From NCBI GenBank assembly GCA_963626615.1, contig CAVFYD010000001.1, positions 1,012 to 65,011 of the forward strand: DNA of 64,000 nucleotides, read 5' to 3'. The translations under genes were made by a program, and so were the position numbers. Source of the stretch: Sphaerochaetaceae bacterium (lineage in GTDB: Bacteria > Spirochaetota > Spirochaetia > Sphaerochaetales > Sphaerochaetaceae). The number at the start of each line of letters is the position of its first letter. Positions within the stretch are counted from its first letter, which is position 1. This document shows, piece by piece, positions 2,238 through 11,024 of the stretch. The notes beneath the pieces were generated by a model, which was not told the DNA's origin, searched no databases, and worked only from the letters and a program-made list of their open reading frames with translations.

Positions 2238-3596
2238 ATGAACGCAGCAACGGAGAGTGTATTCGAGCGTGTTATGATGAATGACCCGGGCCAGGTGGAG
2301 TTCCAGAGTGCAGTAAGGAATTTCCTTATGTCGATTGACAAGGTGATCGACAGGTTTCCGGATGTCATATACAACAGGGTTCTAGACAGAATGGTGGAGC
2401 CGGAGAGGACAATCATGTTCCGTGTTCCTTGGATCAGCGACGAAGGAAGACTCGAGATAAACAGGGGCTACAGGGTTCAGATGTCATCGGCCCTCGGACC
2501 GTACAAGGGAGGACTGAGATTCCATCCGTCGGTAAACCTCTCGATCATGAAGTTCCTTGCCTTCGAGCAGGTATTCAAGAACTGTCTGACATCTCTCCCG
2601 ATGGGAGGAGGAAAGGGCGGAAGCGATTTCAATCCCAAAGGAAAGAGCGATGGCGAAGTCATGCGCTTCTGTCAGTCGTTCATCACGGAGCTCTACAGAC
2701 ATATCGGACCGGATACCGATGTTCCTGCAGGTGACATCGGAGTCGGAGGCAGGGAAGTGGGATACATGTTCGGTCAGTACAAGAGAATCACGAATTCCTT
2801 CACCGGCGTTCTCACAGGTAAGGGACTCGACTTCGGCGGCTCTCTCATCAGACCCGAGGCTACAGGCTACGGCCTTGTCTATCTTTCCGAGGCAATTCTC
2901 GCTGACCGCAGGATGAGTCTTGCAGGTTCCACGTGTCTTGTCTCGGGTTCTGGTAACGTTGCCCAGTATACTGTCGAGAAGATAACAGAGCTTGGCGGAA
3001 AGGTCGTCACCCTTTCTGACAGCAGCGGTATGATCTACGACGAGAAGGGAATCGACAGGGAAAAACTGGAGTATGTAAAGCTTCTCAAGAACGTCATGAG
3101 GGGAAGAATCAGCGAGTACGCGGAGAAATACCCCGGAGTTGTATATATCCCGCGTAAGGGAGGAACACCGAACCCCGTCTGGGACATAAGGGCTGACTAT
3201 GCATTCCCGTGCGCAACTCAGCTTGAAATCCTGAAGGACGATGCGCTCAATCTCGTCAGAAACGGCGTGAAGTACGTCGGAGAAGGCGCGAACATGCCCT
3301 GTTCGACTGAAGCTGAGGAAGTTCTTGTATCCTCAGGTGTTCTCGTTGCTCCCAGCAAGGCTGCAAACGCAGGCGGTGTTGCGGTGTCGGGTCTCGAGAT
3401 GAGCCAGAACAGCATGAGACTCTCGTGGACAAGGGAGGAAGTGGACCAGAGACTGAAGGGAATCATGAAGAACATCTACTGCGGTATGTCCGAGGCTGCA
3501 TCCCTCTATTCCGATAAGGACAACTTCATTGACGGTGCGAACATCGCATCATTCATGAAGGTGTCGCGTGCGATGCTTGCTCAGGGCTACGTCTGA
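2238..3596 (+). CDS. gdhA: NADP-specific glutamate dehydrogenase
   Basis: 452 aa. Classic Glu/Leu/Phe/Val dehydrogenase motifs KGGLRFHPSVNLSIMKFLAFEQVFKNCLT and LPMGGGKGGSDFNPKGKSDGEVMRFCQSF. The RBS gggagg precedes the ATG. Confidence 0.95.
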   Translation: MNAATESVFERVMMNDPGQVEFQSAVRNFLMSIDKVIDRFPDVIYNRVLDRMVEPERTIMFRVPWISDEGRLEINRGYRVQMSSALGPYKGGLRFHPSVNLSIMKFLAFEQVFKNCLTSLPMGGGKGGSDFNPKGKSDGEVMRFCQSFITELYRHIGPDTDVPAGDIGVGGREVGYMFGQYKRITNSFTGVLTGKGLDFGGSLIRPEATGYGLVYLSEAILADRRMSLAGSTCLVSGSGNVAQYTVEKITELGGKVVTLSDSSGMIYDEKGIDREKLEYVKLLKNVMRGRISEYAEKYPGVVYIPRKGGTPNPVWDIRADYAFPCATQLEILKDDALNLVRNGVKYVGEGANMPCSTEAEEVLVSSGVLVAPSKAANAGGVAVSGLEMSQNSMRLSWTREEVDQRLKGIMKNIYCGMSEAASLYSDKDNFIDGANIASFMKVSRAMLAQGYV

Positions 3597-3615
3597 TATT
3601 TCCACCTCATATTTT

Positions 3616-3646
3616 CCCCGGGCTCTTCGGCGTCCGGGGATTTTTT
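3616..3646 (+). terminator. rho-independent terminator after gdhA
   Basis: CCCCGG...CCGGGG stem followed by TTTTTT. Confidence 0.7.
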
Positions 3647-3961
3647 ACGGTCGCAATCTTCTGTTTGAACATTGAATTAAAAGAAGATGCAGATCCTCTC
3701 TTCGGAGCTTTTGTGCATGCATGTCCCGTGACAGATGAGCCGGAGCGGGGGCATACGGCTCAGTCTTCCGTCATCTCACCGGCTTTGCCCCGATGGCTTT
3801 CCGGGACGGTTAACAGACACCGGTAATGCCTGTTATCGGAGTCGCAGCTGTCATCAGCGTTCTCATCGTCCCGTTTTCTGCTGACAGAAAGAATCGTCAC
3901 GATAATCGGTGAGTGGACTTTCAAAGAGTCCGATCATTCTGTAATATATATTCATCACAAG

Positions 3962-5194
3962 GTGGTTACAATGAACAGTGACGCGAAACTCATAATAGAT
4001 GAAGCACTGAGGGATTCTCTTCCCGACAGCGCAGTGAAGAAGGCACTCGATAAAATTACATTCAGAAGCGGTAAGCTCGTACTCGTTGCAGTCGGCAAGG
4101 CCGCATGGCAGATGGCAGCGGCAGCATATGCTGTTCTCGGCGAGCGTATCGACAGCGGCTGCGTGATCACGAAGTACGGACACAGCAAAGGGCCTGTCGG
4201 CTCTCTCGAGATATATGAAGCGGGACACCCCGTATCCGATGCGAATACCTATAAGGCAACGGAGAGATGCATATCTCTTGTGAGCAGTCTCACTTCCGCT
4301 GACAACGTCCTTTTCCTCATAAGCGGAGGCGGCAGCGCTCTCTTCGAGAAGCCTCTTGTAACGGAAGAGGAGAACCAGGACATAACACGGCAGCTTCTTG
4401 CATGCGGGGCCGACATCGTCGAGATGAATACCATCCGCAAGAGGCTTTCAGCCGTCAAGGGCGGAAAGTTCGCTCTTTTGTGTGCTCCTGCCCACGTTGA
4501 TGCCATTATCCTCTCCGACATCATCGGAGATCCTCTCGATATGATAGCATCCGGTCCGGCCTATCCCGATTCCTCGACAACCGGAGAGGCCCTGGCCATT
4601 ATCAGAAAATATAATCTGAAGCTCTCGCCGGAGGCAGAGAAACTTATCGCTCAGCCTACTCCGAAGACGCTCGATAACGTCACATCCTACGTAACGGGAA
4701 GCGTGAAGCAGCTCTGCCTCTCTGCTGAAAGAACGGCAAAAAAACTCGGCTACGAGACTGTATTCCTCACATCATCCCTCAACTGCGAGGCGAGAGAGGC
4801 CGGAATGTTCCTCTCTGCCATTGCACGTGACAACGCATCCTCGGGCCGTAAGCTTGCCTTCATAGCTGGCGGTGAGACAGTTGTACATCTTACAGGAAAA
4901 GGCAAGGGCGGAAGAAACCAGGAAATCGCACTTGCAGCGGCTGCCGGAATAAAAGGTCTTGATAAGTGCTCGATATTCTCAGTCGGAAGCGACGGCACTG
5001 ACGGTCCGACAGATGCCGCAGGGGGCTGTGTCGACCAGGACACCGCCTCCGTTCTGGAGGAGAAGGGAATAGACATCTCTCAAGTCCTCCGGAACAACGA
5101 CGCCTACAATGCCCTCAAGGCAGCGGATGCTCTCGTCATGACAGGTCCGACAGGAACAAACGTCAACGACCTCACGGTTCTTCTTCTGAATTGA
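3962..5194 (+). CDS. glycerate 2-kinase / hydroxypyruvate reductase-like protein (MOFRL family)
   Basis: Motifs LFLISGGGSALFE and GGETVVHLTGKGKGGRNQEIALAAA are typical of the TtuD/GckA family. The start may be the ATG at 3971 rather than the GTG at 3962. Confidence 0.85.
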   Translation: MVTMNSDAKLIIDEALRDSLPDSAVKKALDKITFRSGKLVLVAVGKAAWQMAAAAYAVLGERIDSGCVITKYGHSKGPVGSLEIYEAGHPVSDANTYKATERCISLVSSLTSADNVLFLISGGGSALFEKPLVTEEENQDITRQLLACGADIVEMNTIRKRLSAVKGGKFALLCAPAHVDAIILSDIIGDPLDMIASGPAYPDSSTTGEALAIIRKYNLKLSPEAEKLIAQPTPKTLDNVTSYVTGSVKQLCLSAERTAKKLGYETVFLTSSLNCEAREAGMFLSAIARDNASSGRKLAFIAGGETVVHLTGKGKGGRNQEIALAAAAGIKGLDKCSIFSVGSDGTDGPTDAAGGCVDQDTASVLEEKGIDISQVLRNNDAYNALKAADALVMTGPTGTNVNDLTVLLLN

Positions 5195-5201
5195 AACCAT
5201 C

Positions 5202-5232
5202 AATCCCGGGCCTGCCCGGGATTAGCTTTTGC
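5202..5232 (+). terminator. hairpin terminator candidate after the glycerate kinase gene
   Basis: AATCCCGGG-cctg-CCCGGGATT stem followed by a weak T tract (agcttttgcc). Confidence 0.45.
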
Positions 5233-5442
5233 CTCAGACTTGAAAAAGATGTCAGTCGGAGAATGTCATTAATCCGCCGAGGTTCCTCTTCGGTTGTGCT
5301 GACAACAGCCGTCAAACCATACGAGGACTCAGGAGAGCCCCCCGGGAGGCGCTATTGTTATCGAAACGGGCATAATAGTTATCGACATGAGAGGTGACAG
5401 AGAGTACCATAGCTATGTAACTTAACCGGTTTAGGAGGGATT

Positions 5443-6747
5443 ATGGACACTTTCCGGCAGACACTTCTCAGAACAGCGCTCCCGATAACGGGGCAGAGCA
5501 TTCTCCAGTCTTCGTTCTCGCTCATCGACCAGCTGATGGTCGGACAGCTAGGAACAGTTGCCGTTGCGGCAGTGGGAATCGGCGGCAAGTTCTCGTCGTT
5601 CTATACTGTTCTCCTTGCATCCCTAATTTCCGCCTACGGGATAATGCTGAGTCAGTATGTCGGGGCCGGAGACAGCAACGGGGAAGCGAAATCATTCCGT
5701 CTTGCATCTCTTTTCTCGCTTGTTCTCACACTTCTTTTTCTTATTCCCTCACTTGTTATCCCGAAAGGGGTGATGAGCCTCTATATAACCGACAAAGAGA
5801 CAATAGATCTCTCTTCGGAGTATCTCCTCATCGTGAGCCTCGGTTTTCCTGCCCAGGCCCTGACACTCATCTTCTCGACAATCCTGAGGTCTCACGAGAA
5901 GGCCCAGATGCCCCTGTATGCCTCACTCATATCTGCTGTGGTCAACAGCGGTCTCAACTACGTCTTCATTTTTGTCTTCAATCGGGGTGTCACGGGAGCC
6001 GCAGTGGCGACTGTAATCAGCCAGTACACGGCGGCCGCTCTTGTTATCATTCCCTCTATCCGAATGATGAAAAAGGCAGACGGCACAAAGGATGGGGAGT
6101 ACGTGAAGGCATTCTTCCGCATATTCCTTCCCATCGTATTCTGCGAGTTCTTCTGGGGACTTGGGGAGAATGTCTATGCCTCGGTCTACGGACATCTCGG
6201 AACCGGGAGCGCAGCGGCATACTCTCTCACGGGGCCCGTGCAGTCTCTTATGACAGGAGCGCTCACAGGCCTGAGCCAGGCTTCCGGAATCCTCATCGGA
6301 AAGGAACTCGGGAGAAAGGACTATGAAAACGCATACAGCCACAGTTTGATAATCATCAGGTACGGCGTTCTCTTCTCCGTAATTCTCTCCGTTATCCTCA
6401 TATTCGTCAGACGATACTATCTTTCGCTGTATTGTGTCGGTGAAGAGGTGTCATATCTTGCGTCAATGCTTCTTTTCGTCTACTCGTTCTATGCTCCCGT
6501 CAAGGTCAGCAATATGATAATAGGCGGGGGGATAATCAGGGCCGGCGGCAGAACCGATCTCAGCATGTATGTCGATGTGATAGGCACGTGGGGAATCGGA
6601 GTGCCTCTTGCATTCCTTTCGTCACGTCTTCTTCATTTCCCGGTCTACCTTGTATATGCAGCGCTCTCCTTCGAGGAAGTTGTCAGACTCATAATCGTCT
6701 GCCGTATCTTCGTGAAGAAAAAGTGGATGGAAAGCATCACAGCCTGA
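5443..6747 (+). CDS. MATE family efflux transporter
   Basis: 434 aa and about 12 predicted TM helices. N-terminus LRTALPITGQSILQSSFSLIDQLMVGQLG is typical of the MatE family. Confidence 0.9.
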   Translation: MDTFRQTLLRTALPITGQSILQSSFSLIDQLMVGQLGTVAVAAVGIGGKFSSFYTVLLASLISAYGIMLSQYVGAGDSNGEAKSFRLASLFSLVLTLLFLIPSLVIPKGVMSLYITDKETIDLSSEYLLIVSLGFPAQALTLIFSTILRSHEKAQMPLYASLISAVVNSGLNYVFIFVFNRGVTGAAVATVISQYTAAALVIIPSIRMMKKADGTKDGEYVKAFFRIFLPIVFCEFFWGLGENVYASVYGHLGTGSAAAYSLTGPVQSLMTGALTGLSQASGILIGKELGRKDYENAYSHSLIIIRYGVLFSVILSVILIFVRRYYLSLYCVGEEVSYLASMLLFVYSFYAPVKVSNMIIGGGIIRAGGRTDLSMYVDVIGTWGIGVPLAFLSSRLLHFPVYLVYAALSFEEVVRLIIVCRIFVKKKWMESITA

Positions 6748-6784: not shown

Positions 6785-7085
6785 ATGTACGATGACAGTA
6801 TGACGAAGGAAATCTTTGAAAAGGCCCTGGGCATCACTGCCATGGTTCATGAAAGACGGGGAACTTGAGAGTGACGGCGTCTTCCGCATCACAATCGACT
6901 TCGACGACGCTGCTTTCCCCGATATGAGGGACAGCGTGGAGAAGGAGTGGGGGCACCTCAGCTTCTTCCAGTATCCCTGTGTCATAAAAGCGAGAATCCC
7001 GAGAGTGAAGGATGAAAGCGGTAAAACATCACTCGTCAGTCCCCCGTGGAAGAAGACAGTCGGGAGCTTTGTTTCACTGAAGTAG
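6785..7085 (+). pseudogene. decayed N-terminal fragment of an ISL3-family transposase
   Basis: Frame 1 reads MYDDSMTKEIFEKALGITA. After a frameshift near 6840 the text continues PWFMKDGELESDGVFRITIDFDD...EKEWGHLSFFQYPCVIKARIPRVKDESGKTSLVSPPWKKTVGSF. This follows the ISL3 N-terminal pattern (ILGL..PW.V..V.......I.I......W.HL..FQ....L.A.IPRVKC...G.....VPWA...S.FT). The zinc-finger cysteines are lost and there is no DDE domain. Confidence 0.6.
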
Positions 7086-7098
7086 AGGAGAAGAAAAG

Positions 7099-7812
7099 AT
7101 GAGTTACAGGACAGTTGAGGCGAGACTTATGGAACTTGCCGACTCTGACGGCTTTGATGCCCTCTACGAAAACCCCAGGAAGGTCTATGACTATCTCATA
7201 AAGGAGAAAGGGGCAGACAGGTCACTCTGCCGTGCGGTTGCGTACGCACTCCTCTTTGACGTCGGAAGAGGGGGAATCGGGGAGAAGGGAAGCCTGAGAC
7301 GGAGAATAAACACACTCTCCCTCAAAGAGGACGTGAGTATATCTCTTTACAGGATATTCTCCGCTCTCTGTTCCGGAGAGCATCTCTCTGCGCTCTCCGA
7401 AGATAAGAAGAAGGCCCTTGATGACTTCTGCTCCCGGGAGCATACATTCAGAATTTCCGGTGAGGCCGACTGGCATTCGAAGAAACATTACACACTGCAC
7501 TGCTCTTACCGCTATGAACTCACCCTGGCCGTGAGTGACAGGAAGAAGGTTGAGGAAGATACCCTGGAGTTCCTCAGTAAGCCTGGCTCTGCAACATCTG
7601 ATGATATTGCTTCATATTACAGGAATGAAATAAAGAAAGCTGTAGATGATGACTTTGATTATTTCTGCTCCGACATCGAAGATTACTACGAGCCGGCTGT
7701 CGAAGAGTATGACGGTGAAAGCGGGAACAGTGCCATAGATGAATACTTAGAGGAGCACGGTCTCGTTCTTGTCGCGTCTTCCTTCCGTGGCGATACGGAC
7801 AGTGACTGGTGA
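7099..7812 (+). CDS. hypothetical protein, paralog of the 9985-10797 product (cassette gene A)
   Basis: 237 aa. RBS gaggag lies 8 nt upstream. It shares blocks with gene C: DGFDALYENPRKVYDYL/NGFEYLYKNPVILKEAL, AVAYALLFDVG/AFIYAIMSGVG, EEHGLVLVASSF/GDHGLVPLTASF. I recognise no family. Confidence 0.7.
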   Translation: MSYRTVEARLMELADSDGFDALYENPRKVYDYLIKEKGADRSLCRAVAYALLFDVGRGGIGEKGSLRRRINTLSLKEDVSISLYRIFSALCSGEHLSALSEDKKKALDDFCSREHTFRISGEADWHSKKHYTLHCSYRYELTLAVSDRKKVEEDTLEFLSKPGSATSDDIASYYRNEIKKAVDDDFDYFCSDIEDYYEPAVEEYDGESGNSAIDEYLEEHGLVLVASSFRGDTDSDW

Positions 7813-7815
7813 CAT

Positions 7816-9891
7816 ATGGAAAAGGCAGACAGAAAGAAGATAGAGGAGATCATCAGACTCAGAACGCGTGAGCTGACAGGGGAGAAGTACAGCCAGGAAA
7901 GCGGTGAAGTCTTCACCCGTGACTGCACGGAGCGGAAGATTCGCTCAGCCGAATATTTCGCTCCGATTCTCGAAAAGAAGTTCGGAGAAAAATACCCCGG
8001 TCTCGACTGGAATGAGGTAAGTGCCAGTTTAACTGTCCTGAGCAGTTACAGTCCGGATACCATCGACAGAGGAGATAATTTTTTGTATGCAGTCGCATAT
8101 TTCATCCTCGATTCCGTTAATTTTGCTCAGGGCAGCAATGACAGAATGGACGAGCTTAAACGGATTTTGAGGGAATGTTCGGCTGTAAACCTTGTGGATG
8201 GCGATCTGTATGATGGCTTTGCAAGGAAACGCCTGATTTATGCCGTACATCCTCTCTATCATCGGAATTTCGCAGATGACATAGTGGAGCTTATCTGTTT
8301 CAGAAATCTCGATTTCGTCAATTACAGAAATGAAAAGAGGAGCTTGGGAGGTTACAGCTTCATCTGTGACGGCTGGACGACTTCGCTTGAGAAGAAAAAG
8401 CCCTGTGACAGTGATTTCTCCGTCAGAAAGTACTTCGACGATATGATGGCACTCGTACCCGAAAGCGATAAGGAAGATGCCATGGAAGCCTACAGAAAGC
8501 TCTTTTTCGAGATGATTGACTGCTATCTTGATTCAGAGAGAAAGCTTGAGAAGCAGGAAGCGAAGCTGAAGGCGAAGAGAGAGTATCTTGATTTTCAGAT
8601 CGGGGAAGCAGTCCGCATGGGAATGAAAATGCCTCAGGAGGAACGTCTTTCTCTCCTGAAAAAGGACGATGAGCTTCAGGAAAAGGAATCAGCATTCAGT
8701 TTCAAGAGGATAAATTTCAACGACACGTTCGCCTATGGTTCCTTCTCAGAACCCCGTCTTCTTCATCGTGAGAGCAGCGCCTTCGGGAACATAAGCGTAT
8801 CTGATCCGTACAAGGTCATAGCAGGTTACTTCTTCCTTCTTGAAAAGGGTGACGATTATGCGTGGCTGCTTTCAGCTTCCACTGCGACACTCGGATTTGC
8901 CTCCGGTCTTCTTCCCTGGGCCGAATGCGAATGGGATGCGGATGAAGACGGATGCAGAATGCATAATAAGGAAGAAGAGTATTCTGTATGCGAAAACTTC
9001 TATAAACCCGTTATCGATCCCTCATCCCTCGGCCTTGACGATACGTTCACTCCTTCTCTTAGCCCGGCAAAGTATGTTTATCTGAAGACTGAGGCCATCC
9101 CGCCCCGTTATTCAGTCACACTTCCCGACAGGGATAAGCTTCTTCCGGTTCTGGGAGAAGATCTCACATCGTCTCTCGAAAAGAGCTACGTGGCATCCTA
9201 TCATGGAACGCATTCGGTAGAACCGGAGAACACCTTTCTCGAAGATTATGTCAAGCTCATGAATCAGCTGAGGAATGCGAAGAAGGAGAATGCAGAGCTC
9301 AGCGGGAAACTGATGGAGAAGGAAAATGCCGGAGGAAAAAGCGGAAAGGAAGAGAAAAGCCCTGATGAAAGAGTTCAGAACGAACTGAATGCACTGAGAG
9401 AGAGCATGTCACTCATCGAGAAGGAAAACAGCATACTCCAGCGTGAACTCGAAAAGGGAAAAAGCGAGATTGCAAGGCTGAAAAAGGAACACAGGGATGA
9501 GAAGGAAGAACTCGATTCTCTGCGTGAACTTGTCTTTGCCTCACGTACGGACAGTGCCGGGGATGCAGATAAGGACAGTCTGAGCATGGAGTGGCCGTAC
9601 GAGAATGTGCACAGCATAGCCGTCATCGGCGGACACACGGACTGGATAAGCAAGATGAAGGCGCTCCTTCCGTCTGTGAAGTTCTACGGCGACAGAATCC
9701 CCGACAGGGATGCGCTCAAGCATACTGAAGTCGTCTGGTTCCAGACTAAGTTCGCTCTGTCTCATCCGACGTATTACAAGGTGATTGATATGGCAAAGAA
9801 CCTTAACCTTTCCATCCGGTATTTCCTTTCTCCCGGCGTATACAGTTCGGCAGAGGCCATTGCCGATGATGACAGAAAACGGGAATTATGA
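7816..9891 (+). CDS. large coiled-coil protein with a DUF2325-like C-terminal domain (cassette gene B)
   Basis: 691 aa, starting 3 nt after the gene A stop. Heptad-rich K/E stretches lie near aa 240-300 and 480-575. The C-terminus HSIAVIGGHTDWISKMKALLPSVKFYGDRIPDRDALKHTEVVWFQTKFALSHPTYYKVIDMAKNLNLSIRYF fits my recollection of the DUF2325 pattern (vlivGG...f......l...D.V...t..vSH......k..ak....v.f). Confidence 0.75.
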   Translation: MEKADRKKIEEIIRLRTRELTGEKYSQESGEVFTRDCTERKIRSAEYFAPILEKKFGEKYPGLDWNEVSASLTVLSSYSPDTIDRGDNFLYAVAYFILDSVNFAQGSNDRMDELKRILRECSAVNLVDGDLYDGFARKRLIYAVHPLYHRNFADDIVELICFRNLDFVNYRNEKRSLGGYSFICDGWTTSLEKKKPCDSDFSVRKYFDDMMALVPESDKEDAMEAYRKLFFEMIDCYLDSERKLEKQEAKLKAKREYLDFQIGEAVRMGMKMPQEERLSLLKKDDELQEKESAFSFKRINFNDTFAYGSFSEPRLLHRESSAFGNISVSDPYKVIAGYFFLLEKGDDYAWLLSASTATLGFASGLLPWAECEWDADEDGCRMHNKEEEYSVCENFYKPVIDPSSLGLDDTFTPSLSPAKYVYLKTEAIPPRYSVTLPDRDKLLPVLGEDLTSSLEKSYVASYHGTHSVEPENTFLEDYVKLMNQLRNAKKENAELSGKLMEKENAGGKSGKEEKSPDERVQNELNALRESMSLIEKENSILQRELEKGKSEIARLKKEHRDEKEELDSLRELVFASRTDSAGDADKDSLSMEWPYENVHSIAVIGGHTDWISKMKALLPSVKFYGDRIPDRDALKHTEVVWFQTKFALSHPTYYKVIDMAKNLNLSIRYFLSPGVYSSAEAIADDDRKREL

Positions 9892-9984: not shown

Positions 9985-10797
9985 ATGAAAATGGACGACT
10001 ATCTGACAAAATACAGAAAAGCTGCGGCAATGCTGAAGGCTCTCATGGAGAACCAGAGAGACCTCGGACTCTCTGTCAAGGAGCTGAGCGACTCATCGAA
10101 GGTATGCGAGAACATCGCAGATATCGTAACTGACATGATAGACAGGAACGGATTCGAGTATCTTTATAAGAATCCTGTCATCCTGAAGGAGGCGCTTCCG
10201 CACTCTGATGACACGGAGAGGAAGATTTCGAATGCCTTCATCTATGCGATAATGTCGGGAGTTGGAGAGAAGAAGAAGGAGTCCATAAGTGCAGTCAGGA
10301 CTGAAATCGAGAGCCTTTCTCTCACTAAGGCCATGCTGCATTTCCTTGACGTGATCTTCTCCTCAATATGGGAAGAATACTTTCTCAAGGATGCAGACAA
10401 GCGAGAGTGGGGCGGCTGCGAAGTCTTCTGCTTCCGGACATGGGATACAGAGTTCTGCGGCGGGGCCGTATGGACAAGCAGGGATGGAACGAAAAAGGTG
10501 GTATCCTCCTTTACATGCCGTGTGAAGTTCAAGGCCGAGAACATGGCCATCATCATGTCGGACATCGGTGACGATCACTACGCTTCGGCAGATGCAATCG
10601 CCGTAAAATACAGGAAGGGACTTGAGGAGTTCATCTCTGCAGACTTCAAGCAGTGGTGCGAGAGCGGGAAGAATCCCCCGAAGGCCGAGAACTACGACCT
10701 CCTGCGCGGCCCTGCGGCACTCCAGTTCTACCTTGGAGACCACGGCCTCGTGCCTCTGACAGCTTCCTTCGACGCTCACAGCAGGGATATGGAATGA
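9985..10797 (+). CDS. hypothetical protein, paralog of the 7099-7812 product (cassette gene C)
   Basis: 270 aa. The RBS ggaggg is adjacent, so the second ATG at 9991 may be the true start. Similarity blocks are listed under gene A. Confidence 0.7.
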   Translation: MKMDDYLTKYRKAAAMLKALMENQRDLGLSVKELSDSSKVCENIADIVTDMIDRNGFEYLYKNPVILKEALPHSDDTERKISNAFIYAIMSGVGEKKKESISAVRTEIESLSLTKAMLHFLDVIFSSIWEEYFLKDADKREWGGCEVFCFRTWDTEFCGGAVWTSRDGTKKVVSSFTCRVKFKAENMAIIMSDIGDDHYASADAIAVKYRKGLEEFISADFKQWCESGKNPPKAENYDLLRGPAALQFYLGDHGLVPLTASFDAHSRDME

Positions 10798-10801
10798 AAG
10801 G

Positions 10802-10835
10802 AGCCGCCTTCGGAAACGGAGACGGCTGTTTTTTT
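10802..10835 (+). terminator. rho-independent terminator after cassette gene C
   Basis: AGCCG...CGGCT stem enclosing ccttcgg, followed by a T7 run at 10829-10835. Confidence 0.55.
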
Positions 10836-11024
10836 ATCGCTAATTCCTTATCTTATTATCTGATATGAAAGCAATGTTACTATTTATAGTGTTATTATGA
10901 TAACATTTTCAGGATATTTTATGCAAAAATCTGCATTATTATTCAAAAAGTATTTATTTTTTGGAAGTTTTGTGTGATACTTCTCCCCATACTTAAATGC
11001 ATTTTCATGCACACAGGAGAGATT

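Follow-up and report, generated by a model that had tools for sequence, protein, structure and literature searches.

A 64,000-nucleotide (nt) stretch from a Sphaerochaetaceae bacterium (assembly GCA_963626615.1, contig CAVFYD010000001.1, positions 1,012 to 65,011 of the forward strand; hereafter the window) contains three consecutive genes, termed A, B and C. Together they constitute a fast-evolving accessory operon in gut spirochaetes. The explanation that we favour overall, and to which we give somewhat more than an even chance, is that A and C are paralogs, that B is unrelated to both, that the three form an operon of one subclade, and that their products assemble into a complex centred on B, with a role in inter-genomic conflict as the weaker part of the proposal. 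The A/C and B families underlying this finding are not described, and A/C has no curated model in the libraries searched. The three genes are:

7099..7812, forward strand: gene A, 237 amino acids (aa), of the upstream type within the A/C family.
7816..9891, forward strand: gene B, 691 aa, with a helical N-domain, a coiled coil and an alpha/beta C-domain.
9985..10797, forward strand: gene C, 270 aa (268 aa if the start lies at 9991), of the downstream type within the A/C family.

By all sequence comparisons made, A and C are ancient full-length paralogs of one undescribed family. The first-pass annotation of this DNA had called them diverged paralogs on the basis of three shared blocks; the relationship holds over the full length, not merely in the blocks, in BLASTP, shuffling and HHalign comparisons. 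Residues 10-229 of A align with residues 48-262 of C at 25% identity over 228 columns (BLASTP, E=2e-18). Smith-Waterman scoring gives 177 for the pair, where shuffled C averages 35.5+/-5.5 (z=26; none of 500 shuffles as high), and the A family matches the C family with an HHalign probability of 99.9% (E=4e-35, 232 columns), the inputs being a 13-sequence A-type and a 10-sequence C-type alignment. The peptides quoted earlier are all found in the sequence, with the block located at residue 17 in A, 55 in C and 86 in B. Taken singly, block 1 (z=10.3) and block 3 (z=7.9) stand out between A and C; block 2 (z=1.2) is not significant alone and falls within the significant full-length alignment. A maximum-likelihood tree of 23 A/C proteins separates upstream from downstream copies by a single branch with 100/100 support, so the duplication predates these species.

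B had been said to carry the same N-terminal block, a claim that fails in BLASTP, in shuffles, in profile-profile comparison and in an exhaustive profile search. When A or C is compared with B by BLASTP, the best E values are 0.87-1.4, and the AVAY alignment proposed for B reaches 14 bits (E=7.2). Against the whole of B the A block scores below the shuffle mean (z=-0.9, with 890 of 1000 shuffles as good), the C block yields z=1.6, and comparisons of block with block yield z=1.2-1.3. HHalign of A, C or A plus C against a B profile of 18 sequences returns probabilities of 0.1-0.2% (E=0.3-0.44), and the best alignment of the A/C profiles to B falls outside the claimed region. A hidden Markov model (HMM) search of 1.84 billion representative proteins with the A/C profile finds no B-sized protein among the 150 best matches listed, which are 95-451 aa long.

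The motif [AF][VF][AI]Y[AF][IL][LM] is indeed present in all three proteins, as AVAYALL in A, AVAYFIL in B and AFIYAIM in C, but it is not family-wide: it was derived post hoc from the same three sequences, and it is found in one of 18 B-family and three of 23 A/C-family members. Its Tyr-Ala is nearly invariant in the A/C family, and the B family mostly has Ile at the Tyr position (consensus PAIAIFILDS). A count of 2 in 20000 shuffles for the motif in B was discarded as an invalid test, the motif having been built from these very sequences. These comparisons lead us to regard B as unrelated to A and C, and the first wording of the finding comes down to a commonplace duplication together with a motif shared by chance. 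A model in which A, B and C share a homologous module of ~40-70 aa for homotypic interaction can point to the three motif variants and to the predicted helicity of all three stretches (AlphaFold2 models), but with block-against-B alignments at shuffle level (z from -0.9 to 1.6), HHalign probabilities as low as those above, the motif missing from 17 of the 18 B-family proteins and nothing of B size in the 150 best A/C-profile matches listed, it is already refuted by the sequence and profile comparisons and deserves scarcely any credence.

The A/C family, defined here by alignments A1 and A3, comprises at least 200 clusters at 50% identity (HMM search of the same 1.84 billion proteins, E<=1e-3), nearly all of ~240 aa and matched end to end; homology over the full length (~230 aa) is found for A, C and the other members. 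Its hosts are mostly Bacillota of gut, rumen and digester, plus this Sphaerochaetaceae clade. The named members are each a 'hypothetical protein' in Oscillospiraceae, Solobacterium and metagenome-assembled genomes of Clostridia, and one lies on a Butyrivibrio fibrisolvens megaplasmid. A, C and 43 diverse relatives match no Pfam, NCBIfam, PADLOC or PHROG model, and the A/C profile matches no solved structure among the PDB sequences. A LisH match in A (E=0.008) is sub-threshold, seen in only one A/C-family member, and was treated as noise. Both proteins are soluble and acidic (isoelectric point 4.7 for A and 5.3 for C), and neither has a hydrophobic stretch of transmembrane grade, the maximum 19-residue Kyte-Doolittle value being 1.03 in A and 1.22 in C.

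The AlphaFold2 model of A (mean predicted local distance difference test score, pLDDT, 84.6) has a helical N-domain (~1-112) and an alpha/beta domain (~115-234). The latter is composed of strands 115-126 and 132-145, helices 148-159, 167-191 and 201-219 and a closing strand 222-234, and the model ends in this beta-strand plus an acidic tail. The residues conserved family-wide (W125, Y197, P199, G221 and the stretch DDYYPP..EDY) all lie within the alpha/beta domain. C has an extra N-terminal helix of ~35 aa.

For the alpha/beta domain of A, proteins of the SPFH/Band-7 class (stomatin, prohibitin, flotillin, HflK/C, the vault shoulder domain) are the consistent best class in Foldseek searches of both the PDB and the viral library BFVD. 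The possible likeness lies at the level of the fold and concerns this half of A, which is built of two long beta-strands followed by three helices and a last strand. The matches are weak: E=0.006-0.03, template modelling (TM) score <=0.58 (target-normalised), root-mean-square deviation (rmsd) 3.6-5 A over ~130 columns, with a predicted model as the query. Unlike SPFH proteins, A, C and the 43 diverse members do not match PF01145 in sequence; A has no membrane anchor, hydrophobic hairpin or same-chain C-terminal coiled coil, and carries an extra N-terminal helical domain of ~110 aa that has no match anywhere. The predicted SPFH resemblance of A is accordingly a weak, fold-level lead and does not amount to membership. 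Matches of the A model to Levivirus maturation proteins were rejected (rmsd 17-25 A, low probability).

The B family is small: 5.8 billion proteins contain 16 clusters of it at 90% identity, none of them with a curated family. The AlphaFold2 model of B (pLDDT 72.7) consists of three parts:

7816-9225, forward strand: helical N-domain of B (residues 1-470), private to the clade, with a long helical hairpin at residues 216-307.
9232-9537, forward strand: coiled coil of B (residues 473-574), with helices 473-505 and 517-574.
9613-9888, forward strand: C-domain of B (residues 600-691), a small beta-alpha-beta-alpha domain.

Many residues of the N- and C-domains are invariant in alignment A2; conserved patches of the N-domain are FTRDxTERK, DPYKVIAGYFFLLExGDD, LLPW and IPPR. 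The N-domain has no relative in Pfam, among PDB sequences or among PDB folds (Foldseek). The B profile retrieves only coiled-coil noise from the PDB sequences, and the B model finds only weak flavodoxin- or Rossmann-like PDB matches, all of them to the C-domain. Sub-threshold RH_dom matches in six B members were treated as noise. No enzymatic or toxin domain is recognisable in B by Pfam, by PDB sequence and fold searches or by a scan of the B family.

The coiled coil and C-domain do have relatives, phrog_11092 being the one informative result of the Pfam, NCBIfam, PADLOC and PHROG scans. Residues 518-674 of B match positions 312-467 of the 481-position profile phrog_11092 (E=2e-14), and since this covers only the C-terminal third of the profile, B shares a module rather than being a full-length member. 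The same part of B yields tblastn matches to hypothetical proteins of large Clostridium/Clostridioides phages such as phiCD211, whose 481-aa protein is one example of phrog_11092. The phage proteins share the coiled coil and the C-terminal alpha/beta module with B; their N-terminal two-thirds are unrelated to it, and they lack A/C-type neighbours. A run of small genes comes directly after the 481-aa gene of phiCD211 (locus L089, 4041-6618), and three carry annotations as transcriptional regulators; the layout recalls that of a large coiled-coil protein accompanied by small paralogs.

The last ~90 residues of B, flavodoxin-like with the pattern GG...D-hydrophobic...SH, also bear a possible, distant resemblance to DUF2325 (PF10087). 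PF10087 does not match the window B even at E<=10; five of the 16 B-family members match, only at E>=0.05, and none reaches the gathering score (33.6 bits). A 517-aa protein from locus L073 bridges the two (E=5e-17 to the B profile; PF10087 at E=2.4e-4 and 21.6 bits, under the cut-off), and its N-domain is unrelated to that of B. Unlike DUF2325, B adds a 470-aa N-domain and the coiled coil. The C-domain of B would at best be a distant DUF2325 relative. DUF2325 is itself without known function (Campylobacter jejuni Cj1384 is an example of unknown function; PMC9426514), and the likeness gives no mechanism for B. We consider B a new architecture within a loosely known, uncharacterised class of coiled-coil/DUF2325-like proteins (phrog_11092).

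A, B and C look like one transcription unit, because they are co-oriented and closely spaced and a terminator follows C directly. Gene A has a GAGGAG Shine-Dalgarno sequence 8 nt ahead of its ATG; B starts 3 nt after the A stop, with A-to-B translational coupling; C begins 93 nt downstream of B. Its start is probably the ATG at 9991 (MDDY...) rather than the listed 9985, because all C homologues begin with MDDY and a GGAGG lies 7 nt upstream of this second ATG. Two further features border the three genes:

6816..7085, forward strand: small open reading frame (ORF) of 89 aa from a TTG start, resembling the N-terminus of an ISL3 transposase.
10796..10836, forward strand: intrinsic terminator, a hairpin followed by a T7 run, directly behind the C stop codon (-18.9 kcal/mol, z=-3.1 in RNA folding).

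The small ORF scores under the cut-off against Zn_ribbon_ISL3 (E=0.02; 15.6 bits against 25.5). Neither it nor its longer versions (89-98 aa) contain a DDE part, and they do not qualify as ISL3 transposases. Intact versions of 97-98 aa with 42-49% protein identity are located directly 5' of A in the other cassettes of A-B-C type (G113, contig C77; G109; G107), and in G109 the stop of the small ORF overlaps the A start by 4 nt. Coordinates of such intact versions are 2968-3264 of locus L039 and 3740-4030 of locus L126. The window copy lacks the first ~10 residues in frame relative to the intact ones and is possibly decaying. The small ORF is the probable first operon gene in this cassette subtype, and its sequence looks like a domesticated, Cys-less ISL3 N-terminal domain.

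Among 258 Sphaerochaetaceae genomes, 22 carry B (18 of the 80 genomes in the genus of the window, the others in two further genera), 23 carry A/C-type genes, and 17 carry both. Most B carriers belong to the subclade nearest the window genome, in which the binding protein of the neighbouring ATP-binding cassette (ABC) importer is 88-95% identical. The 30 fetched loci display the gene orders A-B-C (the window, G109, G107 and G119), A-B (at least nine loci) and B-C (G118 and G111). A-type genes are always upstream and C-type genes always downstream of B in this subclade of one Sphaerochaetaceae genus. The A-B junctions measure 3-18 nt or overlap (G109, G119), even where A is only 28-33% identical. 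Genomes of one GTDB genus carry conflicting submitter labels (Lachnospiraceae, Muribaculaceae, Comamonas kerstersii, Eggerthellaceae and Sphaerochaetaceae), and these names are unreliable.

Beyond the subclade, distant A/C genes have heterogeneous neighbours, including PRiA4_ORF3, AAA_14 with DUF4143, SLFN_AlbA_2, a DDE transposase, AAA-ATPase_like with PDDEXK_9, and RecQ. In two unrelated records an A-type gene is situated just 3' of a ~580-aa DDE transposase (Butyrivibrio fibrisolvens pNP243, locus L088, 3984-6702; locus L072, 547-3280), and A-type genes in this position may be passenger cargo of an insertion sequence (IS) element. Loci L073-L075, three metagenome contigs that are near-identical and count as one independent case, have an A-type gene (4983-5738) 1 kb downstream of the 517-aa protein (2459-4009) with the B-like coiled coil and C-domain. 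The neighbours at the divergent B-only loci are of kinds typical for variable regions; by eye, they include a 365-aa protein (L021, 335-1429), an SNF2-type helicase fragment (L029, 1-1206) and a PRiA4_ORF3-like 233-aa protein with a CxxC N-terminus (L023, 3660-4358).

The cassette differs strongly in divergence from its surroundings. Locus L001 (6001-9061) holds the cassette in the position that it has in the window, flanked by gdhA and the DUF3798 ABC operon; identity to the window there is 43% for B and 66% for C, as against 85% for gdhA, 95% for the binding protein, 92% for the ATPase and 95% for the permease. Identities of A, B and C to the window fall in step, from -/73/93% (G122, the contig of which ends before any A gene) through 58/47/77% to 33/38/49%. 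In congeneric genomes that have the ABC operon but no adjacent cassette, DNA homology with the window resumes at ~10890-10915, ~100 nt after C. A simple 'empty site' cannot be defined, as species differ in what lies upstream of the ABC operon. From these alignments we regard the cassette as an accessory unit, set in a locally variable stretch, that diverges rapidly or swaps alleles, its divergence being due either to strong diversifying selection or to the exchange of old alleles. The cassette borders the DUF3798 ABC importer in the window, L001 and L017 and lies elsewhere beside LrgAB or unrelated genes; because this linkage is not conserved, a role in the importer is unlikely.

The first-pass annotation had suggested homotypic interaction of the three proteins or their assembly on a common partner. 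For B, which is unrelated to the other two, homotypic contacts by way of a shared block are therefore without foundation; assembly of A and C on a common partner, with B itself as that partner, is plausible, and is supported by the fixed gene order, by A-to-B translational coupling and by the three genes diverging in step. B would dimerise or oligomerise through its coiled coil, and A-type and C-type proteins would dock on it as non-redundant subunits or regulators, giving a cytoplasmic hetero-oligomer; in lineages that keep just one paralog, either alone would suffice. This self-association of B with docking of both types is a tentative proposal that falls a little short of an even chance. 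The module may, more weakly, serve inter-genomic conflict or a mobile-element function rather than housekeeping. Evolutionary rate, accessory distribution, orphan copies, a mobile or variable context that includes the IS-derived ORF upstream of A, and the phage-borne C-terminal module of B point in this direction; that the module has a conflict function, whether in defence, addiction or anti-defence, is on balance unlikely.

Several observations weigh against this account. The structure predictions are of single chains, A and B, and the complex is read from the gene arrangement. A/C-type genes stand alone after gdhA at B-less sites in G112 and G115, a solitary copy occurs in G123, and contig C14 of G113 has the order A-LrgA-LrgB where G117 has A-B-LrgA-LrgB. 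Essentially all 31 distant metagenomic A/C loci, including those of Bacillota, are solitary. Conversely, three genomes that are 93-96% complete (G056, G057 and G009) carry a divergent B (31-34% identical) and no A/C gene at all. Since A/C and B each also occur alone, neither partner is obligatory. Further counterpoints are the weakness of the SPFH-like fold match (E about 0.006-0.03), the housekeeping nature of the genes next to the cassette in the window, and the possibility that its strong divergence reflects old-allele exchange and not diversifying selection. No relative of B or A/C was found in the IMG/VR viral contigs, and PADLOC-DB 2.0 gave nothing meaningful for A and C and only weak SMC-like coiled-coil matches for the B family (LmuB and JetC, best E=4.5e-4).

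Among the alternatives, conflict may be the primary function, in a module of toxin/immunity or defence type with B as effector or sensor and the acidic A and C neutralising or regulating it; on this view, unaccompanied A/C genes found elsewhere would encode orphan immunity proteins or antitoxins. An accessory cassette that is diverging much more rapidly than the genes on either side and keeps its paralogs fixed in position around B fits such a module. So do the common orphan A/C copies, distant neighbours typical of variable or defence islands or consisting of transposases, and the occurrence of the C-terminal module of B in phages. B, however, has no recognisable enzymatic or toxin domain and matches no PADLOC model beyond coiled-coil noise; a toxin would not be expected to occur without A/C, as B does in three genomes of fair completeness; the viral contigs yielded no relative, and the neighbours in the window are housekeeping genes. 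We judge this explanation to have a small but appreciable chance. A more specific version sees the operon (small ORF, A, B and C) as an undescribed inter-genomic conflict module in which B, with its DUF2325-like head, would be controlled by position-specific, SPFH-like A and C. The ~200-cluster A/C family would be the orphan regulator or immunity arm, and coiled-coil/DUF2325-like proteins would recruit differing sets of small paralogs as partners, A/C-type proteins in this operon and XRE regulators in phiCD211. This version is doubtful.

Alternatively, there may be no complex, with A/C-type proteins acting alone and the adjacency of B being a lineage-specific operon arrangement in one Sphaerochaetaceae subclade. 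Most of the ~200 A/C clusters have no B-like neighbour, solitary copies occur in the same genus and at the same syntenic sites, and B-only genomes exist. Yet A and B stay coupled or overlapping in lineages whose A has no more than 28-33% identity, the paralog clades keep to their positions around B, and L073-L075 independently pair another A-type gene with a coiled-coil protein that shares the C-domain. Independent action of this kind seems improbable.

It is very improbable that SPFH-like domains of A and C and the coiled coil of B build a ring or cage over several polypeptides, analogous to stomatin, HflK/C or vault: the Band-7/SPFH class is the consistent top fold for the A domain in the PDB and viral libraries and B supplies a long coiled coil, but the fold matches reach only E=0.006-0.03 and TM <=0.58 (target-normalised), neither a PF01145 match nor a membrane anchor is found, and in SPFH families the coiled coil is supplied in cis, not in trans.

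The interest of the locus comes from the context of the duplication, a clade-specific operon that pairs the A/C family with a coiled-coil/DUF2325-like protein and diverges about ten times faster than its flanks. The A/C family, at least 200 clusters without a Pfam, NCBIfam, PHROGs or PADLOC model, now has a confident two-domain structural model. DUF2325-like domains have a wide distribution that extends to phages, and Cj1384, which is strongly induced by stress, is one of them. If the operon does encode a conflict or regulatory complex, it would provide a first functional handle for these domains and would extend the known components of such systems by a soluble, SPFH-like subunit; if it does not, it would be a tidy case of sub-functionalised paralogs flanking a partner gene.

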